From UHGV virus genome UHGV-1369436: DNA of 38,409 nt. One strand, given 5' to 3'. Origin of the DNA: a virus. Position 1 is the first letter of the stretch; the number at the start of each line of letters is the position of its first letter. Under the pieces are notes generated by a model that was not told where the DNA came from, ran no database searches, and worked only from the letters and a program-made list of their open reading frames with translations. Made by a program: the position numbers and the translations under genes. Positions 5,470-38,379 of this stretch are shown here, piece after piece.

Positions 5470-5946
5470 ATGGCTAAATCATCTTCTAGCAAGTCTGCAG
5501 ATAAGCTAGGCAGACCAAAAAGGAAATACAACGCTCCACCGGGCATGAATAACAACCCTACTGGCAAGGGCGGTTTTGGCGATAATCCACAAAACGGAGC
5601 GGGTGGTCGCTGGTCAAAAGACACCAGCATCTCGTACTGGTATAACAAGCTAGGCCGTATGACCCTCAAGGAGCTTGAAGAATTTGAGAAAAAGGGCGAT
5701 GAGCTTACTCCGTTCCAAAAGACAGCTCTCGTACGTGTTAAGCGCGCCTACAAGGGAGACTCTGAAGGCTTAGCAGAAGCTAAAGAGGTAGCAGACCGCA
5801 CAGAAGGCAAGGCCAAGCAGGATATATCTATCGACGCCAGCGATGATATGAAAACTATCATGAGAGGCTTTATTATACCAACACTACCAACGGATTGGAT
5901 CGATGAGCAAGTCGCATTGGCCCGTTCTAAACAAAGCAAAGTATGA
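5470..5946 (+). CDS. terS: Terminase small subunit (TerS). The track ORF begins at 5335; the likely start is MAKSSSSKSADKLGRPKRKY.
   Basis: Contains the motif GRPKRKYNAPPGMNNNPTGKGGFGDNPQNGAGGRWSKDT, characteristic of phage small terminase subunits. Lies immediately upstream of TerL. Confidence 0.6.
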   Translation: MAKSSSSKSADKLGRPKRKYNAPPGMNNNPTGKGGFGDNPQNGAGGRWSKDTSISYWYNKLGRMTLKELEEFEKKGDELTPFQKTALVRVKRAYKGDSEGLAEAKEVADRTEGKAKQDISIDASDDMKTIMRGFIIPTLPTDWIDEQVALARSKQSKV

Positions 5947-7504
5947 TGAGCTGCGAGAAAAGGGCTATTGGCTACCATTACCAGGCCCTCAGCAGCTCGC
6001 TATAGCGTTATCACGAGATAAGAGATTCCGTGAGATATTATTTGGTGGTTCTCGTGGTGGAGGCAAGACAGATGTGTCTATTGCTACTATTGGCGATCGC
6101 TTTGGCGACACTAGAGCCCGCCAGCTCGTCATTCGTAAAGACGCAGGAGACCTAGCGGACTTTGAGGAGCGTGCTGTAGCAGCTCTCCAGCCATTTGGAG
6201 CTAAGCTACGCCGCAATCCTATGGTGCTCTCCGCTAAAGGCTGTGGCCGTGTCATTGGTGGACACCTTCACGACGCTGAAGCTTACACAAAGTATCAAGG
6301 GCATGAGTACTGCCGTATCAATATCGAGGAGCTAACTCAGATACCAGACGAGGGACGTTATGAGAAGCTCATTAGCTCTGCTCGTAGCAAGTACAAAGAC
6401 CTATACCCTCAGGTATTCGCTACTACCAACCCAGGTGGCGCTGGCATGGGCTGGGTGAAGAAACGTTTCGTAGCACCAGACCCAGACAGGGCAGAAGTGC
6501 TCAAGATGGAGTATCCTTGGGTAGACATATACGGCAAGAAACAAGTCACACACTGGCAAATCGTTATAGATAAGCGTACAGGTATCTGGAGAGCCTATAT
6601 CCCAGCCACGATTGACTCTAACCCATTCTTGCTCGAGAATGACCCAGATTACGTGAAGTACCTCGACTCTCTCCAAGACTCAGACCCAGAGCTGTATCGT
6701 GCCTGGCGTTTTGGTGACTGGGACATTCAGTTTGGCGCTGTGTTTGAGGAGTTTCGGCAGAGTAAGCATACCTACGCCAAGTTCAGTGAGTGGGGTGTTA
6801 CAAAAGAAGCATTTGACAGCAATTACCGTGTCATGGGCATGGACTGGGGCTACAACGACGAGTGTGTACTACTGTGGGCTATGTTCGACAACATCACAGA
6901 GAAAGAGAACAGAGCGTTTATCTACCGTGAGCTACACGGTAACCACAAGCCTAAAGAGTGGTGGTGCGAGAGGATTGTGGAGATGTATCTCAAAGACCCG
7001 GTAGACTTGATAGCACTACCACATGACGCTTACAGCCACCTGGGAGGCTCTGAGACGATCGCTAAGGTGCTCAATGATACATTTGCCCGTCTTGCCCCAG
7101 ATGAGAAGCGTCCACGCATCGTACGGGCTGATAAGCTCATGAAAGATAGGAAACAGGCAGCAGTGCAGATGATTCACAGTGCTTTCGCTAACAAATCGGA
7201 TGGCAAACCTGGCCTGATATTCAGCAAATACTGCTCATACCTCATAGACACGCTACCTACCATCATCTACGCCAAGGAGTCTGGCGGTGAGGAGCTTGAC
7301 CCTAACAACGTAGACCACGCTCTAGACTCTCTCATGTACACGCTCATGACAGCCAACCGCGAGTATGGGTTCCTGGTGAATGAAGCAAAGAGAATCAACA
7401 AGCTCACCAAGCAGTCATTTACCATAAACCCAGGCGGCAGAGTAGAGGCAAAAGACATTGGAATTGATATTGCAACAGCGGTAGAGACAGATAAGCTCAC
7501 ATAA
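5903..7504 (+). CDS. terL: Terminase large subunit (ATPase plus nuclease).
   Basis: Walker A GGSRGGGKT and Walker B-like VIRKD/DE motifs. 533 aa. Positioned after TerS and before the portal. Confidence 0.8.
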   Translation: MSKSHWPVLNKAKYDELREKGYWLPLPGPQQLAIALSRDKRFREILFGGSRGGGKTDVSIATIGDRFGDTRARQLVIRKDAGDLADFEERAVAALQPFGAKLRRNPMVLSAKGCGRVIGGHLHDAEAYTKYQGHEYCRINIEELTQIPDEGRYEKLISSARSKYKDLYPQVFATTNPGGAGMGWVKKRFVAPDPDRAEVLKMEYPWVDIYGKKQVTHWQIVIDKRTGIWRAYIPATIDSNPFLLENDPDYVKYLDSLQDSDPELYRAWRFGDWDIQFGAVFEEFRQSKHTYAKFSEWGVTKEAFDSNYRVMGMDWGYNDECVLLWAMFDNITEKENRAFIYRELHGNHKPKEWWCERIVEMYLKDPVDLIALPHDAYSHLGGSETIAKVLNDTFARLAPDEKRPRIVRADKLMKDRKQAAVQMIHSAFANKSDGKPGLIFSKYCSYLIDTLPTIIYAKESGGEELDPNNVDHALDSLMYTLMTANREYGFLVNEAKRINKLTKQSFTINPGGRVEAKDIGIDIATAVETDKLT

Positions 7505-7560
7505 AGGCTAGTCTCTCTCACTCTATTTGCTGTATGATAGAGACAAACAGGAGACATAGC

Positions 7561-9690
7561 ATGCATGACGAAGACAAAGTATTTAAAGACCCAAGGGTAG
7601 ACGACATAACAACCAGCACTGGTGTGATTGATGAGCGTGATGCCCTATCTATTGATGAAGTAGATGACGCTACGCTTGTACGGCGTTTCAAGTATTGGGT
7701 AAACGACTCAGAAGCTTACTGGAATAGCAGAAGCGGTTTCAACCTACGCAACGTACGGGCACAGAATGAGCGCTACTACCTAGGCAAACAGGACAACGAC
7801 AGGCTTTACTACCACCAGGCAGACTACCGCGATAACCAGCTATTCGTTGGTATTCAAGCTGTTATAGCCTATGTCTCAGCTCGTGACCCAGGGTGTGAGA
7901 TTACTCCAGGTGATGACTCTCCAGCTAGCAAGACGCTCGCAGCACGTCTAGAAAGCGCTGTAGACCTTCACAGCCAGAAGGTACGTCTCTCACGCAAGAT
8001 CAAGGTAGCAGCCAAGAACCTCGCCCTGAAGCGTGTTGGCGTAATCAAGCTCATGTATAACCCATTCAGCAAGGAGATTGAAGCGAGGGCGCTCAACCCA
8101 GAGAAGGTTATTCTTGATCGTAACGCAGAGCTAGATGAGGAGCCACGCTTTATCTGCGAGGTATGTGAGGACACTGTAGATATTCTCATGTCTAAATTCC
8201 CAGAGAAAGAGAAGGAGATTATGAATGAGCTTGGCTTTGTGCGCAAGACCCAGAAGCTCCTCAGCACTGTTGTGGCCTACAACGAGATTTGGTTTACAGA
8301 TACTACCACTGGTGAACCACGTGAGTGTGTCGCTTGGTATTTCAACAACCTTATCTTAGATAAGAAGCTCAGCCCTATGTACGAGTACGACAACAAGGGT
8401 GTTGCTATCTGTAACTACACAGACAAGCCCACCAAGCCGTACGCCTTCTGCAATTACCTGAACGATGGTAGCCATATGATCGACCAAACATCACCTATCG
8501 AGCAGGCCATTCCTCTCCAGAACATCCTCAACCGTCGTGGTCGCCAGATCATTGACAACGCAGACACAGCTAACAGCATTAAGGTGTTCCGTGCCGGAGC
8601 TATCTCAGAGGATGACGCCAAGAAGCTCACAGGCAAGCCTAATCAGTCTGTTGTGCTCGATATTCGTGAGGACGAGCCTCTCAGCAACGCATATGGTGAA
8701 ATTCCAGCCCACTTGCTACCTAACTACGTACTACAAGACAAAGAGGACATTAAGAACAGCATCCACAACATCCTTGGTACGCCTTCTCAGTTCCGTGGCG
8801 ATGACTCGAAGCGTGACGTTGGTACACTCGGTGAAGCACAGATGATGCAGAGCCAAGCCTCTGGCCGGCAGGATGAGATTGTGCGTGAGATTGATAACAT
8901 GCTTGATCGCTACTTTAAGTTGCTCGTTCAGATGATGAAGGTGTACTACAGCAAGAACCACAAAATCTCTGGCCGTGACACTGATGGCAACTTCATCCAT
9001 GTAGAGCTATCTCGTGAGACTATCCCAGACAACGCTGTGATCGCTGTGTCACCAGGTAGCACCGTGAGTATGGACAAGAGCCGACGTGAGAACATCGCAG
9101 TGAAGCTGGCAGAGCTTGGTGTGATTGATCCATACAACCTGTTTAAGGATCTTGGCCTTAAGGACTCTAGTGAGCGTTACGAGAGCCTGGTTAAGTTCAA
9201 GACTGATCCGAACATGCTCGTGGATGAGGTGCGCAGTGAGGTACAAGATGAGGAAGCCTACATTGACTTTGCAGTCATCATGAACGGTTTCGACGCTAAG
9301 CCACGTGATGACGTGACACCGCAGCATATCCTAGCTCACAATAAGCAACTCCAGACAGACAAGTTCCTCATGGCTAACCCGAAGCTCCAGCAGAAGCTCC
9401 TGGCTCACATTGACCAAGAGGTGCTAAGTCTCAGCCAGCGTGAGAAGCTCCAACAAGCTAGCGACCAAGGCCTACTCGTAGACCCAACTATCCCTACAAG
9501 CCCAGAGATTCCAGAGCCTCAGCCACCAATGCCCGTAGACCCCTCTCAGATGCCACCAGAAGCGATGCAAGGCCAGCAGCCACCAGTAGATGGTCAACCC
9601 ATCCCTGAGCAGCCAGCACAGCCTGTAGGTGACCTAGGCGGCGTACAGGATCAAGGCACAAGCGGTATCCTCTCCGGCCTCGGGCTATAG
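7561..9690 (+). CDS. Portal protein with a Pro/Gln-rich C-terminal tail.
   Basis: 709 aa, immediately after TerL. Start set at ATG 7561, which has AGGAG 8 nt upstream (the track begins at 7534). C-terminus reads PEPQPPMPVDPSQMPPEAMQGQQPP. Confidence 0.65.
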   Translation: MHDEDKVFKDPRVDDITTSTGVIDERDALSIDEVDDATLVRRFKYWVNDSEAYWNSRSGFNLRNVRAQNERYYLGKQDNDRLYYHQADYRDNQLFVGIQAVIAYVSARDPGCEITPGDDSPASKTLAARLESAVDLHSQKVRLSRKIKVAAKNLALKRVGVIKLMYNPFSKEIEARALNPEKVILDRNAELDEEPRFICEVCEDTVDILMSKFPEKEKEIMNELGFVRKTQKLLSTVVAYNEIWFTDTTTGEPRECVAWYFNNLILDKKLSPMYEYDNKGVAICNYTDKPTKPYAFCNYLNDGSHMIDQTSPIEQAIPLQNILNRRGRQIIDNADTANSIKVFRAGAISEDDAKKLTGKPNQSVVLDIREDEPLSNAYGEIPAHLLPNYVLQDKEDIKNSIHNILGTPSQFRGDDSKRDVGTLGEAQMMQSQASGRQDEIVREIDNMLDRYFKLLVQMMKVYYSKNHKISGRDTDGNFIHVELSRETIPDNAVIAVSPGSTVSMDKSRRENIAVKLAELGVIDPYNLFKDLGLKDSSERYESLVKFKTDPNMLVDEVRSEVQDEEAYIDFAVIMNGFDAKPRDDVTPQHILAHNKQLQTDKFLMANPKLQQKLLAHIDQEVLSLSQREKLQQASDQGLLVDPTIPTSPEIPEPQPPMPVDPSQMPPEAMQGQQPPVDGQPIPEQPAQPVGDLGGVQDQGTSGILSGLGL

Positions 9691-12475: not shown

Positions 12476-13513
12476 ATGGCGTACAACTACATTACGCAGT
12501 ATGACTCGCCAAACTACACTGCTGGCCGGCAAGGCAACAACATCAGCAGTATCACAATCCACTGGTGGGGGGATCCTAACCAGAACCCTACGTTTGAGGG
12601 TGTCACAGCCTGGCTGTGCAACCCAGCAGCGCAGGTAAGCGCTCACTACGTCGTTACGGGTACAGACCGGCGTGTAGCCTGTATTGTAGACCCTGCTAAC
12701 ATCGCTTGGCACGCAGGCAACTGGGTAGGCAACCAGACGAGCATTGGTATCGAATGCGATCCACGGTGTCGTGATGAGGACTATGACGTTATTGCTGAAC
12801 TGGTAGCAGAGCTACGTAAAACTTACGGAGACCTACCACTCCGCCCGCATAACTCATGGACGAGCACAAGCTGCCCTGGCAACTATGACCTTGGCCGTAT
12901 CGATCGTATGGCTCGTGAGAAGGCTGGCCAGACCGTGCAGCGCGACCGGACTGACGAGATTAACTATCTCAATGGCTTGTACCAGCAGATTCTTGACCGC
13001 AACGTAGACGAAAACGCTATTGGTCACTACCTATCTCAGATCGACAAGGGCTGGAACTGGGATCAGATCCGTGAGGACTTGGCTAACAGCGCAGAAGGTA
13101 AGGCTGTGGCAGAGCGACGTAACGCACGTAATAATGAGCTACGAGCAGCCTACGACAGTGAGACTAACGAGATTCAGCGCCTCTACCGGGAAGTGCTTGA
13201 GCGTGATGCAGACGAGGCTGGCATTGAGCATTACCGGAATCAGATCCGTAACGGCTGGAGCTGGGGTATGGTAGCAGATGACCTACGCCGTAGTGATGAG
13301 TACAAGGAATTGCAGCGCATCAAGAACGCACCAACGCCAGAGATTCAGCATGTAGACCCAGAGCCACCGACAGAGCCAGAGAAACCGCAGGAGAGGGCCG
13401 CAGAAGCACCTCAGGAAGCGCCAAAGGCAGAGGACACTACAACTATCCTTGGAGATATTCGACGTATCCTACAGGCGATTCTAGACGCTATCACAGGTTT
13501 GTTTAAAAAATAA
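12476..13513 (+). CDS. Endolysin. N-acetylmuramoyl-L-alanine amidase (Amidase_2/PGRP-type) with two roughly 45-aa C-terminal repeats and a Pro/Glu-rich tail.
   Basis: Motifs …ITIHWWGDP…SAHYVV…IAWHAGNWVGNQTSIGIEC…HNSWTSTSCPG. The repeats LYQQILDRNVDENAIGHYLSQIDKGWNWDQI and LYREVLERDADEAGIEHYRNQIRNGWSWGMV are putative cell-wall-binding units. Confidence 0.7.
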   Translation: MAYNYITQYDSPNYTAGRQGNNISSITIHWWGDPNQNPTFEGVTAWLCNPAAQVSAHYVVTGTDRRVACIVDPANIAWHAGNWVGNQTSIGIECDPRCRDEDYDVIAELVAELRKTYGDLPLRPHNSWTSTSCPGNYDLGRIDRMAREKAGQTVQRDRTDEINYLNGLYQQILDRNVDENAIGHYLSQIDKGWNWDQIREDLANSAEGKAVAERRNARNNELRAAYDSETNEIQRLYREVLERDADEAGIEHYRNQIRNGWSWGMVADDLRRSDEYKELQRIKNAPTPEIQHVDPEPPTEPEKPQERAAEAPQEAPKAEDTTTILGDIRRILQAILDAITGLFKK

Positions 13514-27135: not shown

Positions 27136-27202
27136 TAGCCACGGTTATCGACCAATAGTGTCGTAAAATCAGATTAGTAACAACTATAAGGAGATGGAAG
27201 CA

Positions 27203-28282
27203 ATGAAGTTTTCAGAAACAGTGCAAAACATCACAAAGGACGAGTTTCTACCTCGCGTTGTTGACTTTGTTAACAACTCGAACGTTTTGACCGCTCGCGT
27301 GATGAGCAACACCAAGAAGTGGACTGGGCCAAAGGTTCAAAGTCCTACACAAACCAAGAACAGCACGACTGGTAAGTCGATCACCGACATGGAGCAGTTT
27401 GCTGTTTCTAACACCGACAACGTTAAGAACCTGAAGTGGGAACCAGCCACGGTTGTCCAGAGCGTTGTTGTGAGCCAGCTTGAGAAGGCTGTCAACCAAG
27501 CATCGAACGACAACCAGGTTGTCCGCTTGGTTGCTCAAAAGCTCGAGGAAGCTCAAAACAGCCTCGCAAACCTCATCGGTACTCAGCTTTACGGTACTGG
27601 TGCTGGCAACGACCTTGATGGTCTGGGCTTGATCGTTGACAACGGTACGGCATCTACCACTTACGCTGGTATCACCCGTGCTACGATGCCTTCGGTCAAC
27701 GCTGACGTTACAGCTGCTGCTAACGGCCTCTTGACTCTCGGCCTTATGGCTAAAGAGTTTGACGCTGTCTCAGCTGCTGGTAGCGCAAAGCACAGCCCAA
27801 CGATGATCCTCAGCGACAAGGCAACTTGGAGCCTATACGAGGAGCTGATGGGTGACAAGCTCAGCGTCCAATACAACGCTATGACTGCTCGTGGTTACAA
27901 CCGTGTTAGCGGTGGTACTCCAATGGGTACTTCTGTGCCTGCTAGCGAGTTGCACGGCTCGGCTGGGTTCGTATCGCTCGACTTTCGTGGCAAGCCATGT
28001 GTGGCAGACGACAAGGCTCCTATGGGCAAGATGTTCTTCCTCAACGAGAACTACCTGGAGTTTCGTGACCTGACCATTCCTGGCCTTGAGCGTGTGAAGC
28101 AGAAGCAGGAGGCTATCGACAGCGCTATCAGCGAGGATCAGCCTACCTGGATGCAGTTCCGCGGTTTCATGAACCCAACGAACCAGCTCGCAGAGATTGG
28201 TGCAATGGTTGTATCGGGTAACTTTATCTGTACTCAACCTCGCCGCCAGGGTGTTATCACAGGCATCACCAAGATTCGGTAG
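27203..28282 (+). CDS. Major capsid protein (HK97-like fold).
   Basis: Blocks LIGTQLYGTGAGNDLDGLGLIVDNG, SPTMILSDKATWSLYEEL and GKMFFLNENYLEF resemble the Phage_capsid family. Strong bias for GTT/GGT/GCT/CGT/AAC codons unlike neighbouring genes. Strong terminator downstream. Start at 27203 with AAGGAG spaced 9 nt. Confidence 0.6.
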   Translation: MKFSETVQNITKDEFLPRVVDFVNNSNVLTARVMSNTKKWTGPKVQSPTQTKNSTTGKSITDMEQFAVSNTDNVKNLKWEPATVVQSVVVSQLEKAVNQASNDNQVVRLVAQKLEEAQNSLANLIGTQLYGTGAGNDLDGLGLIVDNGTASTTYAGITRATMPSVNADVTAAANGLLTLGLMAKEFDAVSAAGSAKHSPTMILSDKATWSLYEELMGDKLSVQYNAMTARGYNRVSGGTPMGTSVPASELHGSAGFVSLDFRGKPCVADDKAPMGKMFFLNENYLEFRDLTIPGLERVKQKQEAIDSAISEDQPTWMQFRGFMNPTNQLAEIGAMVVSGNFICTQPRRQGVITGITKIR

Positions 28283-28354: not shown

Positions 28355-28383
28355 TTGACTCTATTCTTTAGATGGTGTACTAT
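28355..28383 (+). promoter_or_regulatory. Promoter TTGACT-N17-TACTAT plus conserved leader AGAGACATAGCAAACATAAGCAAGAGAGGAGATAA.
   Basis: 17-nt spacing. Member of the conserved promoter/leader family. Confidence 0.55.
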
Positions 28384-28425
28384 AGAGACATAGCAAACAT
28401 AAGCAAGAGAGGAGATAATACTTGC

Positions 28426-28689
28426 ATGGCTAAAGAAAGTAAAACTAATAAGAAAAGCCAAGACGTAATCTTTGGGGCAAACGAAGAGATTCGCCGCGCC
28501 GTAGATAAGCTCTATGTAAAAAAGACAAGCGCTATCATGACGGCAGCGATCTTTGCAGTAATGCTCTCGCTGATCGCAGCAGGTGTAGCTTTCGCGGCAG
28601 GCCTCAACACAGGCCGTACACAGGTTGAGAAGTACAACACTATCAAGGTTGTGACGAGCGAAACCGCGGGAAAAGAAAAAGCCCAGTAG
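28426..28689 (+). CDS. Small membrane protein (87 aa, one TM segment).
   Basis: Track ORF 28372..28689. Start reassigned to ATG 28426 behind the promoter, with a GAGAGGAG SD. TM segment IMTAAIFAVMLSLIAAGVAFAAGL. Confidence 0.55.
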   Translation: MAKESKTNKKSQDVIFGANEEIRRAVDKLYVKKTSAIMTAAIFAVMLSLIAAGVAFAAGLNTGRTQVEKYNTIKVVTSETAGKEKAQ

Positions 28690-28730: not shown

Positions 28731-29063
28731 GTGGCGCAACCAATAAAGACAGGATGCGACGCTGTGCGTGAGGAGGCCTCGAAATACAGCGGGTGGGACG
28801 TAAACACCATGGTCGCTATCGCTACCGCCGAGAGCCATTGTAGGACAGGCGCAAAAGGCGACCAAACACTAACATTTACACAAAACAATAGGGTATACGG
28901 GTATAGTCTAGGAGCTTTTCAGGTAAGGATACTCCCAGGACGAGAACACTGCGACACGTTCGACGTAGGGACTAACGTAAAATGCGCGTACGATGTGTGG
29001 AGGTCACAGGGGTACAAAGCATGGTCTGTCTACTTGAGCGGTAAATATAAAGAGCACCTGTAG
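28731..29063 (+). CDS. Transglycosylase-like (Rpf/lysozyme-like) domain protein (GTG start). Possible second peptidoglycan hydrolase.
   Basis: SGWDVNTMVAIATAESHC…GYSLGAFQV…AYDVWRSQGYKAWSVY resembles the transglycosylase-like/Rpf domain pattern (W…CES…G..Q…W…GW). Confidence 0.45.
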   Translation: MAQPIKTGCDAVREEASKYSGWDVNTMVAIATAESHCRTGAKGDQTLTFTQNNRVYGYSLGAFQVRILPGREHCDTFDVGTNVKCAYDVWRSQGYKAWSVYLSGKYKEHL

Positions 29064-29096
29064 TGGGTGCTCTTATCTTTGGGTTTATATTTTTTA
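29050..29096. terminator. Bidirectional terminator at the convergence point of the two arms. AAGAGCACC-TGTAGTG-GGTGCTCTT followed by a T-rich tract.
   Basis: 9-bp stem. TATATTTTTTATATT lies 3' of it. Confidence 0.6.
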
Positions 29097-29315
29097 TATT
29101 AGGCCGCGCTTCTTAGCTTCTTCTGGGTAGTACTCGATAAAGTCATCGTTTACTGTCCCATCTGGGTTATGCGACTGGATTAGGTCGGCCGCAAACTCCT
29201 CACGCTGTCTGTCTTTACTGTTTGTGTCTGCTATGCCCGTGACAGTGCTTGAGACGCGCTGTGATGCGTCTTTTGGTGTTTCACGGTAATATATACCATC
29301 TATGATTACACCCAT
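29094..29315 (-). CDS. Hypothetical protein (73 aa).
   Basis: ORF track entry. Last gene of the - arm. Confidence 0.5.
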   Translation of the reverse strand: MGVIIDGIYYRETPKDASQRVSSTVTGIADTNSKDRQREEFAADLIQSHNPDGTVNDDFIEYYPEEAKKRGLI

Positions 29316-29594
29316 CTATTTCACGTCCTTCATAAAGTCTAACGGGTCTTTTTCTGTTTGCCCTGTCTCATCGCGCCATTGAGCATTGATAGTCACAGGA
29401 TCGGCGGCTTCAATGATGCCGCTATGTTTTTTGTCTTTGTTTTTATTTATGTATTGTTCCTCCGCGCCCGCGTATTTCTCCAGCCAGGAGAGGCCTGCCC
29501 GTCGTACCGTAGTAGGTACAACCGGGTCATGGCGGTTATTTAGCAAAGCGACTAGGAGGGCACAAATTGAGATGACAAGAGCTACAATATCCAT
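29316..29594 (-). CDS. Hypothetical protein with an N-terminal transmembrane helix (92 aa).
   Basis: MDIVALVISICALLVALL…. Confidence 0.5.
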   Translation of the reverse strand: MDIVALVISICALLVALLNNRHDPVVPTTVRRAGLSWLEKYAGAEEQYINKNKDKKHSGIIEAADPVTINAQWRDETGQTEKDPLDFMKDVK

Positions 29595-31072
29595 TATTCT
29601 TGATCCTTCTCAAATGGCAGAGCCACGTTAATCGATAGGAGCTGCGCAGCGACGCTGTGGCTATTTATGATTGCCTCCTCGATAGATTTAGCGCTATCTA
29701 CAATACCAGCCTCTAGAACGTCTGTGTGGTACGTCTCAGAATAAATATCGTAACCGGCCTTTGGTGTGTACGGCTTGTCCTCAGTCGTCTCCTTAGCCAT
29801 ACTACCTACAAGCATTGTGTATGGCTGTGTGAGGTAACTAGGCATATTAGTGGTGTCGCCTTCGTATACGTCGCGTAGGAACGTACCACCACCAGGGAGC
29901 ACTCCATAGTCTTTTGCAATCTGGGTAGCTGCTACAGCGTCCTCAATACGGAGCTTTAGCTCTTGCCGCTCAACCTGTGTAGCTGCACCAACGCTAATCT
30001 CAACAGTCTTACCATTCAAGGCATCACGCCGGTAATCGTCCTTGATACCTTCGATGTATTGATCCAGCTTCTCGCGGTTACCTGGGCCAGATAGGATTGT
30101 CTTTGTAGTGGTGATATGAGCGCGCTCAACCTTACCGATATTGGCATCTGTAAAGTCTGATACGCGTGGTGATACGAACACCTCAGCGCCAGCATAGGCT
30201 GCTACGTCACGAAGGAATAGCTCGCGTGCTTGACTCGATGGCTCTACTACGACAATGTTCAGTTTGCCGTTCATCTTATTGGTAGCGAGAGTCTCCAGGG
30301 CTTGGCCTGATACGTCTGCTACGAGTACGATGCTCTCTGCACCCGCCTTGAGAACTGCGTCGATAATAGGTACAATGTCATCGTTCTTGCTGATGATGCG
30401 AGACATGACAATAACGGTTGGGTTGTCGTATTTAGTCTGGATAGATTGCATATCGTCTGCGAAGGCAATGGACGACATACCTTTTTTAAATGTGAACCCT
30501 TGGACGATTTTACTCTCGATCTTATTCTCTGGTGTTTCTACCACTGTTACTGCGCCATTAGCACCAGCATCGTTAATAGCATCAAACACTAGATGGCCGA
30601 TAGCCTCATCACCTGATGACGTGTGTGCGACGCTATAGAGTAGCTCGTCTGTGGCTTTGATCTTAGTGTCTTTGATAGCCTTGATGATAGCCTTCTTATT
30701 TTGCTCAATCTGCTTTTGTACGGCTCGTGGCTTATCCTTCGCCATCTCCTTAAAGTAGTTATAGACGAGGTAGGTCATTACGATAGTAAGAGTTGTAGAG
30801 TCGCCAGCTGAACGGTTCGTTTTCTCGCTGGCCTGGCGTACAAGGGAGATTGCCATATTCTCTACTGGATCTGCTACTACGAGGCGGCCAATATTAGTAA
30901 TACCGTCATGAGATACGAGAGGCTCGCCGTAGCGGTGTTCGATCATGATATTACCAGAGTTTGCGCCATATGAGGAATATGCTACGTCGAAGGCCTTCTC
31001 AACGCCCATACTGATCTTTTTTTGTAGCTCATCACCACGTATTACATTACGTACTGAGGTTTGTTTAGGCAT
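29594..31072 (-). CDS. GroEL-like chaperonin (Cpn60 family, about 492 aa). It lacks the GGM tail.
   Basis: Alignable by eye to GroEL. AGDSTTLTIVM resembles AGDGTTTATVL. VGAATQVERQELKLRIEDAVAATQIAKDYGVLPGGG resembles [36 protein letters not shown]. C-terminal GIVDSAKSIEEAIINSHSVAAQLL resembles [23 protein letters not shown]. Start at ATG 31072, which has a GGAGGT SD. Confidence 0.7.
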   Translation of the reverse strand: MPKQTSVRNVIRGDELQKKISMGVEKAFDVAYSSYGANSGNIMIEHRYGEPLVSHDGITNIGRLVVADPVENMAISLVRQASEKTNRSAGDSTTLTIVMTYLVYNYFKEMAKDKPRAVQKQIEQNKKAIIKAIKDTKIKATDELLYSVAHTSSGDEAIGHLVFDAINDAGANGAVTVVETPENKIESKIVQGFTFKKGMSSIAFADDMQSIQTKYDNPTVIVMSRIISKNDDIVPIIDAVLKAGAESIVLVADVSGQALETLATNKMNGKLNIVVVEPSSQARELFLRDVAAYAGAEVFVSPRVSDFTDANIGKVERAHITTTKTILSGPGNREKLDQYIEGIKDDYRRDALNGKTVEISVGAATQVERQELKLRIEDAVAATQIAKDYGVLPGGGTFLRDVYEGDTTNMPSYLTQPYTMLVGSMAKETTEDKPYTPKAGYDIYSETYHTDVLEAGIVDSAKSIEEAIINSHSVAAQLLSINVALPFEKDQE

Positions 31073-31361
31073 CCAGTAAACCTCCATTTACAGCGTCTAC
31101 AGGGACAAAGATAAACATTTTACTGTCTACTTCAATCTCCTCACTGTCGTTATACTTCGTAAAATATATTTTGTTGCCAAGGAATTTCGAGAGTGTGTCC
31201 TCCTTGTCTGTAGACACACCAGAAGGGTGAATATATACAGCCTTTAGTGTGCCGCTCGTATGACTGCCGTGATCCCCTTGTGAGATAGACAGACTCGAGC
31301 CATATTTGTTAGTTACCTCTACCAGGCAAAACCCTGGCATGACGTGTAACTGTGTGCTCAT
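31065..31361 (-). CDS. GroES-like co-chaperonin (Cpn10 family, 98 aa).
   Basis: Mobile-loop-like SSLSISQGDHGSHTSGTLKAV resembles [22 protein letters not shown]. The C-terminal block …GNKIYFTKYNDSEEIEVDSKMFIFVPVDAV resembles …[35 protein letters not shown]. Lies directly upstream of and overlapping the GroEL-like gene. Confidence 0.6.
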   Translation of the reverse strand: MSTQLHVMPGFCLVEVTNKYGSSLSISQGDHGSHTSGTLKAVYIHPSGVSTDKEDTLSKFLGNKIYFTKYNDSEEIEVDSKMFIFVPVDAVNGGLLDA

Positions 31362-31413
31362 TGTTGTGCTCCTATTTAGTTATTGCTTGTGTATCCATTA
31401 TAGCATTAGGCTA

Positions 31414-31446
31414 GAAACCAAAAAAGAGGCCGAAGCCTCTCTCTTG
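31414..31446 (-). terminator. Rho-independent terminator (- strand): AGAGGC-TTCG-GCCTCT followed by TTTTTT.
   Basis: Read on the reverse complement. An A-run on the + strand makes it partly bidirectional. Confidence 0.65.
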
Positions 31447-31462: not shown

Positions 31463-31945
31463 CTATACTTCGCACCAGAAATAGTGGCCGGCTGGCACAG
31501 CACTACGGGTGTAAACCTTAGCGCCCGCTGTAACCTTCTTGAGGTTATCATAGTCATTGGGGCGAACCTGGCAGCCAGTGTTGGCTGCTACGTCCTCGAG
31601 GATTTGGTCGCGGAGGTAGACGTAGTCACCCGAAACCTGAATAAACTCAAGGAGTTGCTTGTTGTTGATAAGGATGGTGCCATCTTGCCAACCATCAGCT
31701 TGGTGACCAGGCTTCAACTGGATAACAGTGTCTCCAGTTTTAGCATCAGCTGCCAACCCGCCGTTTTTGTTTGTGGCGTCGTTTTTCATCCCAGTCCAAT
31801 ATGGCTGAGCGTCGGTGTCTGCCGACTTACAATAACGGAACTGCCGCCCCGTATCTGTAAATGCAATTTGGCCGATCACGCCACGCTTATCTGGAGTCGT
31901 GGTAAATTGTGATTCTGGCACTGCTACGCCGTAGTTTACTAGCAT
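31463..31945 (-). CDS. Hypothetical protein (160 aa). Apparently a monocistronic unit between two terminators.
   Basis: Own TATAAT and SD AGGAGA upstream (31946-31990). Terminators on both sides. Confidence 0.6.
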   Translation of the reverse strand: MLVNYGVAVPESQFTTTPDKRGVIGQIAFTDTGRQFRYCKSADTDAQPYWTGMKNDATNKNGGLAADAKTGDTVIQLKPGHQADGWQDGTILINNKQLLEFIQVSGDYVYLRDQILEDVAANTGCQVRPNDYDNLKKVTAGAKVYTRSAVPAGHYFWCEV

Positions 31946-32032: not shown

Positions 32033-32485
32033 CTAGAAAATTTGATCGTTTGGTGTTTGTTTTCGTCTTTCCTTATAGTCTGTCATAGCCATGTATTTAT
32101 CTATTTGGTCTTTTGCATCGTCGAACCCCACCGCAAATGTGCATCGATAACCTCGCTCGCTCAGACGCTTCATGTAGGCGTGTTGCTCTGCAAAGTGTTC
32201 GTTCGCCCAGCTGCCATCTTTTTTCATGAGGCGTACCCCATCACGCTTCAGCTCGAGGTACAGCCCATGATACCACTCACCCGCTAGTTGTGCTGGTTCA
32301 GCGATAAATAGGTCTGGGTATCCTCTACCTTCCTGTAGTGCCTTATGTTTGATAGCCTGCCCCATTGTCATCTTAACGCCAGCGCTAAAGTCTGTGCGGA
32401 ATATGACTCCTGGATACTGTAGCTTTAAATAGTCCACCACCATCTGGTGGATGGTGGACTCTTTTGCGGTTCTAACTCTCGCCAC
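32033..32485 (-). CDS. VRR-NUC domain nuclease (PD-(D/E)XK superfamily). GTG start.
   Basis: VVDYLKLQYPGVIFRTDFSAGVKMTMGQAIKHKALQEGRGYPDLFI…GLYLELK matches the VRR-NUC pattern (E…G.PD..…LE.K). Confidence 0.55.
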   Translation of the reverse strand: MARVRTAKESTIHQMVVDYLKLQYPGVIFRTDFSAGVKMTMGQAIKHKALQEGRGYPDLFIAEPAQLAGEWYHGLYLELKRDGVRLMKKDGSWANEHFAEQHAYMKRLSERGYRCTFAVGFDDAKDQIDKYMAMTDYKERRKQTPNDQIF

Positions 32486-32894
32486 GGTACATACCCTCTA
32501 CGATCATGACCTTGAGCGTCTCTAGGACAGCCACATCTTTCGTAGCCATCACCCGGCCAGATAGGTCATCTCGTGGCACAGCCTTCTTGATACGTCCGTT
32601 GTAGCGTGGGATAATCGAGAGAATTGAGCCGTTCATTGTAACCTCGTAGCGACTTTTCTCCTCTTTTACCTTGAACTTCTCATTTTTAAGGAGCACCCGT
32701 TGGATATTGTCCGCAGCCGCAAATGATAGTTCTGCGTACGGTGTAGCGCGTCCGCCCTTTTTGCCGGCGATAGATGCTAGTTGCGGGTTCTTGCCAAATC
32801 CCTTCTTTACCTTAGCAGACCCGCCTAGCTTGCCAATTTTTTTGTAGTAGTCATCACCATGCGTTAGGCGTTTGTCATATTTGCTTTGTTTCAT
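32472..32894 (-). CDS. Protein with an N-terminal KGG-type repeat region (GKLGGSAKVKKGFGKNP…AGKKGGRA). Function unknown.
   Basis: KGG/GG-K repeats resemble the KGG stress-protein repeat. C-terminal domain of unknown function. Confidence 0.4.
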   Translation of the reverse strand: MKQSKYDKRLTHGDDYYKKIGKLGGSAKVKKGFGKNPQLASIAGKKGGRATPYAELSFAAADNIQRVLLKNEKFKVKEEKSRYEVTMNGSILSIIPRYNGRIKKAVPRDDLSGRVMATKDVAVLETLKVMIVEGMYRGES

Positions 32895-35688: not shown

Positions 35689-37650
35689 CTAGATATACAG
35701 GCCCTGTAGGCGCTGTAATGATTTTGCTGTTGGGTCGCTATAGAGTAGGTCACCCTTGCCAGTGAGAGCCTCAGCCCCTACCTCGTCTAGGATAATCTTA
35801 CTGTTGAGCGAGTTTGTGACACTAAAAGCGATCTTGGTTGGGATATTCGCCTTAATAAGCCCTGTCACAACGTCTGCTGATGGGCGCTGTGTTGCTAGTA
35901 TGAGGTGTATACCAACCGCCCGTGCTTTCTGCGCTAGTCTAATTATAGACTCCTCAGCAGAAGGCGGCGTGTTATCGTTGACGCGCTTCACGGCGGCTTT
36001 GAGTGCGGCCTTTGTGAGCTTACCACCTGTGAGCGTGACCTCGTCCAGGATAGCATCCTTAAGGCCTTCGTAGTCCACATTCGATAGTGGGTTTTTCTTG
36101 CTCGTCATCATAAGATCAGCAAACTCATCCACTACAACTACGATACGCGGCATCTCTCCTGGGTAGTCTGCAATGTCTCGGACGCGCTTCTCGCGTAGCT
36201 CCTTGTACCGTCTCCCCATCTCCTTTACGAGCCAGTGAAACGTCTCCGCCGCCTCCTTGGGTGAGGTGATAATATCGTTTGCAAGATGATCATCACCCTC
36301 GTACATAGCAAGCTCAACCTCTTTAGGATCGATGAGCACGAGCTTCATTTGCTCCGGTGTGAGCTGCTTCGTGAGACAGTCCAGGATTACGTTTATCATA
36401 ACAGACTTACCTGCGCCGGTCTGACCAGCGATCAAGAGGTGAGGTGTCTTTACAACGTCACAGTAGTGAACTTTACCGAAGGCGTCCATGCCGATAGGGA
36501 ATTTGAACGTGCCAGGATTAAGGCACTCATCTGTAAGAGGAACAACCTTACGATCTTTATTTGGTATTTCGATACCTACAAGGTTTGTACCTGCAATAGG
36601 GGCTTCGATACGTACAGACTCGCTCTCGAGGGCAATAGCAAGGTCGTTAGCCTTGTCTGCGATACGTTTCATACTCACGCCTCGGTTAGGCTGCATCGTG
36701 TACTTGATTACCTGCGGCCCGACGTATGTCTCACCCATCTTACCACCAATGCCAAACTCGATAAGCTTACGGAGGATCTTCTCCTCGTCTGTACCTGTGC
36801 CGTCATCGATGACAACGTTCTGTTGCTCAAAGGTATCAGCTACTCGTACTTGTCGCTTGATCTTGGCGGCGTCAAAGCCTTCTTGCTGGTTGGCGATAAT
36901 GTCCATGCTGTTCGCGCCGTTCATCCGATCGTTCATGTTGGGGAAGAACTTCGACCGGTCATCGTTTACATATTCAAATACGTTTGTGATGATTTTCTTT
37001 GCGATAGGTGCGAAAGCAAGGACAGATTGGCGATCAAAAGCAACGTCACGGCACTGTGGCGAACCATCCCGGTTGATCGTTTTCTTTATTTCTTTAAATA
37101 CTACCTCTGTTACTTTCTGATTATATTCCGCTTCTGCTAATACGAGGTAGATATAAGCTTGCATAAGGTACTTGTAACTCTCCTCGTCATCTGGGCTGTA
37201 AGCAGTAACTGTCTTGTAGTCGATAAGCCGTAGCCCATTGTCGCGCACCACCATGTCGATCACACCAACCATTGGCACGTTAGCGATACTCGCCTCGAGA
37301 CGTTTCTCAACATCTACTACCTCGTCGTAGTGTGGTGCTTCCTCAAAGTATTTATTTACGAGGCGAGTGTAGTCTTGCATCATCTTTTCACGGCTACCCG
37401 TCTTGCCAAAGTCAATCTCAGAGTCGCTTACATAGCTCATCTCCTCTAGGCCGGCCTCAATGGCAGCCTGCACGTCGCCACCGTCCTTACCGTAGAAGGT
37501 CTCCATAGCCTTGTGAAAGCTCGTACCTACTACTAGTGATGGTGTTTTAGGGTTATCGTAGATCTTTGCTATGTAGCGCTTCTGAAACTCAACTTGGTTA
37601 TTCAAGAACGTTACGATCGCTGAATACGACAGGTGGTTAACTCTACTCAT
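35689..37650 (-). CDS. Fusion protein. The N-terminal domain is a Cas4/RecB-like PD-(D/E)XK nuclease. The C-terminal domain is an FtsK/SpoIIIE-family ATPase.
   Basis: N-terminus: LSYSAI…GTSFHKAMETF…GVIDMVVRDNGLRLIDYKT…QAYIYLVL (SxS, GxxxH, D…DYK and QxxxY nuclease motifs). C-terminus: Walker A IAGQTGAGKS, Walker B VVVVDEFADL, and FtsK signature VGIHLILATQRPS. Start at ATG 37650, which has a GGAGAGGAG SD. Confidence 0.7.
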   Translation of the reverse strand: MSRVNHLSYSAIVTFLNNQVEFQKRYIAKIYDNPKTPSLVVGTSFHKAMETFYGKDGGDVQAAIEAGLEEMSYVSDSEIDFGKTGSREKMMQDYTRLVNKYFEEAPHYDEVVDVEKRLEASIANVPMVGVIDMVVRDNGLRLIDYKTVTAYSPDDEESYKYLMQAYIYLVLAEAEYNQKVTEVVFKEIKKTINRDGSPQCRDVAFDRQSVLAFAPIAKKIITNVFEYVNDDRSKFFPNMNDRMNGANSMDIIANQQEGFDAAKIKRQVRVADTFEQQNVVIDDGTGTDEEKILRKLIEFGIGGKMGETYVGPQVIKYTMQPNRGVSMKRIADKANDLAIALESESVRIEAPIAGTNLVGIEIPNKDRKVVPLTDECLNPGTFKFPIGMDAFGKVHYCDVVKTPHLLIAGQTGAGKSVMINVILDCLTKQLTPEQMKLVLIDPKEVELAMYEGDDHLANDIITSPKEAAETFHWLVKEMGRRYKELREKRVRDIADYPGEMPRIVVVVDEFADLMMTSKKNPLSNVDYEGLKDAILDEVTLTGGKLTKAALKAAVKRVNDNTPPSAEESIIRLAQKARAVGIHLILATQRPSADVVTGLIKANIPTKIAFSVTNSLNSKIILDEVGAEALTGKGDLLYSDPTAKSLQRLQGLYI

Positions 37651-38320
37651 CGTCGCTCTCCTCTCCATTATTAGCGTTAGCGGTTAGTTCTTCCTCTACG
37701 TAGATACCTGCAATGTCGAAGCCTGCACGTAGAGCGTTTGCCTCAGCACACTTAGTGAGCATCACTATAGGCATGGTTTTCCAGTTGCTTATCGGCTGAC
37801 CTTCACGGTTAGTGCGTACAAACTCATCGTAGTAGGCTGTATATCGTGTAACCTCGATTGGCGTACTCGTGTTGTCCCAGCGGCCAAATACAGGCACCGT
37901 GACGCTCAGGAGCTTATCGCCATCTTTCTTAACTTCTGCTGCACCTGTGTGAGTGTACACGCCACCCTTCCGCGCTAGCTTACGCAAACCGTGGATACTC
38001 ACGATTGGCATTAGCTCCTCGCCCCGTCGGTTCGAGTCCCAGATATATGTAGCGTAAATCTCCTTTTTAAACGGGTTCAGGCCGTACTGGTTGGCGATAG
38101 CCATAAATACCCGTAAGTCACCGATTGGACGCATCTCGCCCGTCTTGGTGAGCCCTAGGACGCTTTTATGCAAGGTGGCGATCAAGCTCAGCGTCTGCTT
38201 TTCATTCTCAGCGTTGCTGATCATACCCTTAGCGAGTGGGACGACAGGCTCATACTGGTTTTTCAGCGCAAGCTGCATAGCCCTCTTCTCGTCACGTTTT
38301 GTAATTTCTTGCTGTGTCAT
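37643..38320 (-). CDS. recT: RecT-family single-strand annealing protein.
   Basis: C-terminal MLTKCAEANALRAGFDIAGIYVEEE matches the RecT signature. Start at ATG 38320 behind the conserved leader (the track extends to 38362). Confidence 0.65.
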   Translation of the reverse strand: MTQQEITKRDEKRAMQLALKNQYEPVVPLAKGMISNAENEKQTLSLIATLHKSVLGLTKTGEMRPIGDLRVFMAIANQYGLNPFKKEIYATYIWDSNRRGEELMPIVSIHGLRKLARKGGVYTHTGAAEVKKDGDKLLSVTVPVFGRWDNTSTPIEVTRYTAYYDEFVRTNREGQPISNWKTMPIVMLTKCAEANALRAGFDIAGIYVEEELTANANNGEESDDE

Positions 38321-38350
38321 GCAAGTTCTCCTCTCTTTGCTTATGATTCT

Positions 38351-38379
38351 ATTGTAGCTCATATGGCAAGCAAAAGCAA
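38351..38379 (-). promoter_or_regulatory. Early promoter (- strand) TTGCTT-N17-TACAAT plus conserved leader AGAATCATAAGCAAAGAGAGGAGAACTTGC.
   Basis: Reverse complement read directly. Confidence 0.55.

Follow-up and report, generated by a model that had tools for sequence, protein, structure and literature searches.

A divergent GroES/GroEL-like gene pair within a four-gene operon of a 38-kb tailed phage related to a Saccharibacteria phage

The virus genome UHGV-1369436 (38,409 nucleotides, the whole of which is called the window here) is a 38-kb tailed-phage genome related to a phage of Saccharibacteria (TM7), and its minus strand carries a four-gene operon made up of a cpn10-like gene, cpn60 and two small genes, orf92 and orf73. 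We consider it likely that the first two genes encode a cognate, phage-specific group I chaperonin system. An initial annotation of the window, made from its sequence, had already proposed a phage-encoded GroES/GroEL-like pair, and this proposal holds: Cpn60 is recognized by direct matches to hidden Markov models (HMMs), and the identification of the Cpn10-like protein is supported by transitive profile homology, predicted fold, synteny and the UniProt name of an 85%-identical orthologue. The coordinates, strand, sizes (98 and about 492 aa) and overlap given there are likewise in accordance with the list of open reading frames (ORFs) and with a comparison of start codons.

Judged by its profile matches, the product of the larger gene is a full-length GroEL homologue belonging to the group I chaperonins. 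It matched the Pfam family Cpn60_TCP1 (PF00118) with E=2.9e-33 (115.7 bits, cut-off 34.3), PHROG 5725 'chaperonin groEL' with E=1.7e-99 over residues 12-495, and solved GroELs in the PDB with E values as low as 1.4e-54 (9c0d, residues 24-488). When compared with the NCBIfam equivalog model for GroEL (TIGR02348) it scored 225.5 bits, under the cut-off of 582.1, and it displays 26-27% identity to E. coli GroEL and about 27-30% to any cellular GroEL; because of this score and of its low identity to the E. coli protein, Cpn60 is regarded as a divergent member of the family and not as an orthodox GroEL. The mechanical ORF of the gene comprises 497 aa (29594-31087), but the ATG at 31087 is absent from several near-identical genomes, in which AAC replaces AAT. 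In contrast, the second ATG (31072), preceded by GGAGG or GGGGG, is invariant in 22 close genomes and in two more distant relatives (L003 and L005), with a GTG at this position in the TM7 phage (L001), and of the two products only the 492-aa one is found, as an exact match, in public gene calls. The longer form was therefore rejected and Cpn60 is taken to be 492 aa long.

In order to compare the two proteins at the residue level, functional positions of E. coli GroEL were transferred to Cpn60 through a multiple alignment. The residues that bind Mg-ATP or take part in catalysis (D52, D87, T89, T90, S151, D398, G414-G416 and D495) are kept in the window protein and in its clade. Conservation of the ATP site had been named as a check in the initial annotation, and the equivalents of D87 and D398 are indeed present, with the GDGTT motif reading GDSTT. 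The GGG block considered diagnostic there is also found, but its designation as apical hinge was wrong, since GGG414-416 is part of the equatorial domain, where it belongs to the nucleotide pocket. The deviations at the nucleotide site are G88S, T91L, P33A and K51H, of which T91L recurs in two unrelated viral GroELs. In the apical groove, the hydrophobic character is maintained in part (M199, F204, V234, I237 and L259, E. coli numbering). Other features of E. coli GroEL have been lost, namely the salt bridges D83-K327, R197-E386 and E257-R268, the 14-residue segment 352-365 with the acidic cavity residues D359, D361 and E363, and segment 423-432, and E255 is replaced by serine. The inter-ring contacts are mostly changed (A109K, R452T, S463T, V464E), and these unconserved residues hint at single rings. 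The absence of a GGM tail and the high divergence pointed out in the initial annotation are both confirmed, the protein ending in ...PFEKDQE with E. coli positions 524-546 unmatched; C-terminal Gly-Gly-Met repeats are common in bacterial GroELs and not essential to the family.

The 98-aa protein represents a divergent branch of the Cpn10/GroES family. A first homologue search retrieved only close relatives, with 73-93% identity, on contigs of 38-39 kb. A profile built from the window clade and the 29.5%-identical orthologue of the TM7 phage (profile A1) retrieved about 30 further members with E values of 1e-14 to 1e-20 from a database of 5.8 billion sequences, and matched the proteins P0042, P0052 and P0065 with E values of 2.4e-19, 6.3e-17 and 3.4e-14, respectively. 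These three proteins exceed the gathering threshold of the Pfam Cpn10 family (PF00166; 25.6-27.6 bits against 21.1), with alignments running from position 2 to position 91 of the 93 in the Cpn10 model, and a Cpn10 match at E<=1 was obtained for 30 of the 36 aligned family members. The weaker matches are to the same family: the only NCBIfam models retrieved by the 98-aa protein are three of GroES (E 0.04-0.14, far under the cut-off), in register at the C-terminus, and the only PDB entries retrieved by the family profile at E<=10 are three GroES chains (E 0.57-0.77, non-significant). A correctly named, near-identical orthologue of each chaperonin protein exists in at least one public database.

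The predicted fold of the 98-aa protein (AlphaFold2, AF2) is the GroES beta-barrel, in which residues 20-32, at the position of the mobile loop, are predicted to be disordered (predicted local distance difference test, pLDDT, below 50). The residues invariant in the family are located in this loop (Y20, S22, L24 and S25) and in the core of the barrel, and close-clade variation is centred on residues 41-55, the 'roof' region. An hhalign alignment of weak score sets K19-Y-G-S-S-L24-S-I26 on K20-S-A-G-G-I25-V-L27 of E. coli GroES, a segment that holds the GroEL-binding tripeptide. The putative lid may be compared with E. coli GroES in its predicted fold and mobile loop, and Cpn60 with E. coli GroEL (e.g. 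PDB 1AON), whose three domains align with it over almost the full length; the groES-groEL gene order is also alike.

The linkage between the two genes is tight. They overlap by 8 nt, ATGCCTAA, and this overlap is kept in the 22 close genomes and in L003 and L005, the TM7 phage having one of 14 nt. The cpn10 and cpn60 genes co-occur in every relative examined, and the gene order is common to TM7 phage DolZOral124_53_65 and to 38-40 kb contigs from ENA/Logan: a gene of about 165 aa, the Cpn10-like gene, the overlapping Cpn60 gene and small ORFs, followed by a convergent SLT lysozyme, a small membrane protein and the major capsid protein. In the relatives sharing this order, Cpn60 is about 50% identical to that of the window and the Cpn10-like protein only 23-30%. 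Among 22 distinct alleles no internal stops were found, and the ratio of nonsynonymous to synonymous substitution rates (dN/dS) is 0.027 for cpn60, 0.077 for orf73 and 0.097 for cpn10; the 98-aa ORF is a real gene, and both it and cpn60 are under strong purifying selection.

The pair makes up 4.6% of the genome, a share that rises to 5.9% for all four operon genes. The signals that would delimit the operon, a promoter and two terminators, are consensus matches only (Table 1). The hairpin following orf160 may constitute a terminator-like boundary upstream of the operon, and the consensus scan gave its stem on the plus strand as well; the second hairpin separates the operon from the convergent lysozyme gene. 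The location of the operon within a minus-strand block of recombination and nuclease genes suggests expression before or alongside the late structural genes.

Phage gene pairs of this kind have been reported previously. In viromes, a co-chaperonin gene was found on 133 of 337 GroEL-bearing contigs, with the order GroES>GroEL on 63 of them (Marine et al. 2017, PMC5649160), and among deposited phages adjacent GroES>GroEL genes are present in Bacteroides phages DAC19 and DAC22, Flavobacterium phage vB_FspM_immuto and Caudoviricetes sp. MW202828. These cases do not support the view, expressed in the initial annotation, that GroES and GroEL together would be unusual in a phage, while the associated premise that phage GroELs are rare is only partly right, with a GroEL match in 211 of 50,697 deposited phage records and a GroES match in 123. 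GroEL is also encoded in other genomes of about 39-43 kb (MW202566, MW202497 and the TM7 phage). Since viral GroES>GroEL operons have been published and orthologues have already been named, the window pair is real and correctly identified, but it is a divergent new member of a kind of phage gene pair that has been documented before. Like the virioplankton and deposited-phage operons, the window has a co-chaperonin directly upstream of a divergent GroEL in a tailed phage. Peculiarities described for viral GroES proteins include a mobile-loop glycine replaced by Ser or Asn, polar tripeptide residues and a variable or absent roof (PMC5649160), and the window protein shares the replaced glycine, a polar residue within the tripeptide and the variable roof. 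Unlike the marine virioplankton operons, however, the window clade is oral or host-associated and related to a Saccharibacteria phage, and in contrast to both sets it has a Cpn10 so divergent that HMMs do not detect it directly, a genome (38 kb) among the smaller ones and two additional conserved small genes in its operon.

The closest named system is that of TM7 phage DolZOral124_53_65, whose genes CQ476_26 to CQ476_29, in a genome of 38.8 kb, have the same order as those of the window. Identity between the two phages amounts to 50% for Cpn60, 29.5% for the Cpn10-like protein, 51% for orf73 and 53% for the capsid protein; the record of the TM7 phage gives an annotation for Cpn60 alone and lists the Cpn10-like gene as 'hypothetical protein'. 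The TM7 phage differs from the window in having three small downstream genes instead of two, in its longer overlap and GTG start, and in a larger equatorial-region deletion in its Cpn60. Two other viral GroEL homologues, on IMG/VR contigs of 32-40 kb (L034, 1452-2996, and L035, 4001-5530), are only 26-27% identical to the window Cpn60 and 38-40% identical to E. coli GroEL; they keep GDGTTL and segment 352-365, and GGE replaces GGG416. The window GroEL, in contrast, has G88S and the 14-residue deletion 352-365, which is absent from both. As these homologues are closer to E. coli GroEL than to the window protein, small phages must have acquired GroEL more than once.

Based on the established biochemistry of GroEL/GroES, on the retained ATP site and on the lid features, a mechanism can be proposed. 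Cpn60 would assemble as heptameric rings and its hydrophobic apical groove would take up a non-native phage protein; upon ATP binding, a Cpn10 heptamer would cap Cpn60 through the loop tripeptide L24-S25-I26, and the capped cage would enclose the client for folding. With the GGM tail, the acidic patch of the cavity, the allosteric salt bridges and most inter-ring contacts lost, Cpn60 probably has a cycle unlike that of E. coli GroEL and may act as single rings in the manner of mitochondrial Hsp60 or phage chaperonins. By analogy with gp23, GroEL and gp31 in T4, the most likely client is the adjacent, convergently encoded major capsid protein, the alternative being a lysin, as suggested by gp146 and gp188 of phage EL. 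It is plausible, on the same T4 analogy, that the operon is a dedicated capsid-folding module. A more specific proposal, in which we place little confidence, is that of a self-contained, co-evolving single-ring chaperonin with a remodelled cage, an atypical S-L-S-I lid loop and one client (e.g. the capsid), operating in an ultra-small Saccharibacteria host and with orf73 and a membrane-anchored orf92 as new accessory factors. The remodelled cage would then be one devoid of the acidic cavity patch, the GGM tail, and salt bridges or inter-ring contacts of the E. coli type, and orf73 and orf92 could, for example, target the cage or time the release of the client.

Several observations weigh against a cognate pair. 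The 98-aa protein has no significant direct match to any Cpn10 model: it gave none in Pfam at E<=1 and no significant one in PHROG or PDB sequence searches. Of the family HMM searches suggested in the initial annotation, that with Cpn60_TCP1 was significant for its target, but the Cpn10 assignment had to be reached through intermediates. The alignment of the 98-aa family with the single E. coli GroES sequence is weak (hhalign E 0.065, probability <1%) and the AF2 model is of moderate confidence (pLDDT 70.5). Furthermore, the putative binding tripeptide (L-S-I) has a polar residue in the middle, as do 23% of viral GroES sequences (PMC5649160), the phosphate loop of Cpn60 reads GDSTTL where that of E. 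coli reads GDGTTT, and the apical groove is weakened by Y203A, V263A and V264T; as a consequence of these groove substitutions, of the altered loop and of the polar residue, lid binding and a normal ATPase rate are not guaranteed. A very unlikely alternative is that the 98-aa protein merely shares the widespread GroES-like beta-barrel, a fold also present at the N-terminus of alcohol dehydrogenases, and is no co-chaperonin but has another role, for instance structural or regulatory.

A less improbable alternative, although still an unlikely one, is that the two proteins act apart, Cpn60 as a lidless ATP-dependent holdase in the style of EL gp146 and OBP gp246, and the Cpn10-like protein by redirecting the host GroEL, as do T4 gp31 and RB49 CocO. 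Phages EL and OBP have genomes of more than 200 kb. Their chaperonins are, like the window Cpn60, phage-encoded and highly divergent GroEL homologues, and gp146, the best-studied of its kind, works without a co-chaperonin, splits into single rings with ATP and has a phage endolysin as putative client (PMC7185714). Nevertheless, the window Cpn60 resembles the lid-dependent GroELs of cells (E 1e-54) far more in sequence than it does gp146 (PDB 6TMT, E 1.1e-19) and, unlike the gp146 type, has a Cpn10-family gene translationally coupled upstream; the published descriptions of EL-type phages that were compared show no adjacent cpn10 gene. Likewise, gp31 partners the host GroEL in T4, which has no GroEL of its own, and the phages known for gp31-type lids encode no GroEL, whereas the window phage encodes Cpn60; moreover, the 98-aa protein is demonstrably tied to Pfam Cpn10 by profile searches. 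The conserved 8-nt overlap and the co-occurrence of both genes even where the Cpn10 identity has fallen to 23-30% also argue for a cognate pair.

The least probable explanation is that the pair is cellular groESL DNA, mis-assembled, mis-binned or very recently captured. Whole contigs with the operon do sit in Saccharibacteria- and Atopobium-labelled bins, and some GenBank 'phage' GroEL records, such as short unannotated ones, resemble bacterial contamination. However, the bins contain whole phage-sized contigs and not insertions, the operon is embedded between the capsid/lysozyme and recombination blocks of a tailed-phage genome, and this genome of about 38-39 kb is represented by more than 20 IMG/VR entries and by hundreds of cluster members, on which grounds contamination was rejected. 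In addition, cellular GroELs share far higher identity among themselves than the 27-30% that separates any of them from Cpn60.

Within the operon, the two small downstream ORFs had been correctly pointed out in the initial annotation, which assigned a transmembrane helix to one of them, and both are translationally coupled to the preceding genes. The N-terminus of orf92 forms a hydrophobic, membrane-anchor-like helix (Kyte-Doolittle 2.48 over residues 1-19), and at this position the relatives have ORFs of about equal length, likewise with a hydrophobic N-terminus but poorly conserved in sequence; no family was matched in Pfam, PHROG or NCBIfam searches. orf73 is conserved across the clade at 41-51% identity, comparable to Cpn60, with the motif LIQ-x3-PDG-x-N-x2-F-x2-YYPE-x-A, and none of its 136 homologues falls outside this phage clade. 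PDB searches gave neither a sequence nor a fold match for it (AF2 pLDDT 72, low predicted template modelling score of 0.39), and no family could be recognized.

Upstream of the operon lies the conserved orf160. In the genomes L009, L015, L021, L023 and L027, which share 96-99% identity in Cpn60 and in the capsid protein, the orf160 alleles fall into two classes, of 93-100% and of 47-49% aa identity. This split amid near-identical genomes suggests a swapped or diversifying cassette. No family match was obtained for orf160, which had 9 hits among 1.84 billion representatives; distant matches to MAM and TAL repeats look spurious and were set aside.

The gene for the major head protein closes the plus-strand structural block, some 17 kb away from the portal gene. 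It faces the chaperonin operon in convergent orientation, with about 0.8 kb between it and the operon end, an arrangement kept in L001, L003 and L005. Its orthologue in the TM7 phage (L001, 18550-19626, 53% identical) carries the annotation 'homeodomain-like protein', which is probably a misannotation. The 105-aa ORF between the capsid and SLT lysozyme genes looks holin-like by position, and an 87-aa ORF is found at this site in the relatives. Encoded in the minus-strand block are RecT, a fusion of PD-(D/E)XK and FtsK, and a VRR-NUC-like nuclease, together with the proteins of the chaperonin operon. In the fusion ORF, an N-terminal PD-(D/E)XK nuclease (residues 12-202) is followed by FtsK-alpha and FtsK/SpoIIIE ATPase domains, and such a nuclease-translocase fusion is unusual; a RecT gene lies next to it. 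The 140-aa KGG-repeat-like ORF overlaps the VRR-NUC-like nuclease gene, and a KGG-repeat protein is present in the TM7 phage too. Neither a tRNA nor terminal repeats were found in the window.

In IMG/VR, 21 near-identical genome entries were found, with Cpn60 identities of 89-99%. The Cpn60 cluster has 419 members, for which the given names are 'chaperonin GroEL', and the Cpn10 cluster 158, for which they are 'hypothetical protein'. The clade comes from oral or host-associated metagenomes, and its nearest named relative, TM7 phage DolZOral124_53_65 (MG269973), is a Saccharibacteria phage. Whole phage-sized contigs (24.8-39.1 kb; L007, L008 and L009) are binned in metagenome-assembled genomes labelled Candidatus Saccharibacteria and Atopobium/Atopobiaceae, a placement that reflects either contaminated binning or an ambiguous host assignment. 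A megablast of the chaperonin region against deposited phages gave no match, and a limited literature search on chaperonins of TM7 or Saccharibacteria phages returned nothing relevant.

Table 1. Features of the chaperonin operon and of its surroundings in the window
Feature	Position	Strand	Remarks
Large terminase	5903-7504	+	
Portal	7534-9690	+	
Amidase endolysin	12476-13513	+	
Major head (capsid) protein gene	27194-28282	+	PHROG 9953 'major head protein', E=6.6e-66
105-aa ORF, central hydrophobic helix at residues 58-76	28372-28689	+	Kyte-Doolittle 2.41
SLT lysozyme	28731-29063	+	
Terminator-like hairpin closing the operon, 9-bp stem with 5 G-C pairs	29050..29074	-	consensus scan and sequence
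orf73 (73 aa), last operon gene	29094..29315	-	TAG-ATG junction to orf92 at 29316/29315
orf92 (92 aa)	29316..29594	-	start overlaps Cpn60 stop (TAATG at 29594)
Cpn60/GroEL-like gene, 492 aa	29594..31072	-	start ATG at 31072 preceded by GGAGG
Cpn10/GroES-like gene, 98 aa	31065..31361	-	AGGAG 7 nt before ATG
Extended -10-like promoter element TGCTATAAT, about 35 nt upstream of the Cpn10-like start	31397..31405	-	consensus match only
Terminator-like hairpin AGAGGC-TTCG-GCCTCT with six-T run, right after orf160	31420..31440	-	read from sequence; putative function
orf160, conserved upstream neighbour of the chaperonin operon, hairpin-flanked	31463-31945	-	
150-aa VRR-NUC/Holliday-junction-resolvase-like nuclease	32033-32485	-	PHROG 824, E=4e-17; PHROG 5702, E=4e-8
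140-aa protein, weak KGG stress-repeat match	32472-32894	-	E 0.01
659-aa PD-(D/E)XK-FtsK fusion ORF	35689-37668	-	
RecT gene	37643-38362	-	

The novelty of these results is modest. It resides in the Cpn10 assignment of a protein that most records, that of the reference TM7 phage among them, call 'hypothetical', in the catalogue of GroEL features lost in this clade, and in two conserved, unexplained operon partners; the 98-aa protein can now be annotated as Cpn10. To our knowledge, no phage GroEL/GroES pair has been biochemically characterized, and the phage chaperonins that have been characterized are either lidless (EL and OBP) or lid only (T4 gp31). The clade described here is abundant, with hundreds of near-identical public sequences, and compact, and offers a minimal, naturally co-evolved lid-and-cage pair which, because it has shed many allosteric features specific to E. 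coli, could be useful for comparison. If the host is truly a Saccharibacterium, phages of these ultra-small epibionts would devote about 5% of their genome to a protein-folding machine of their own.

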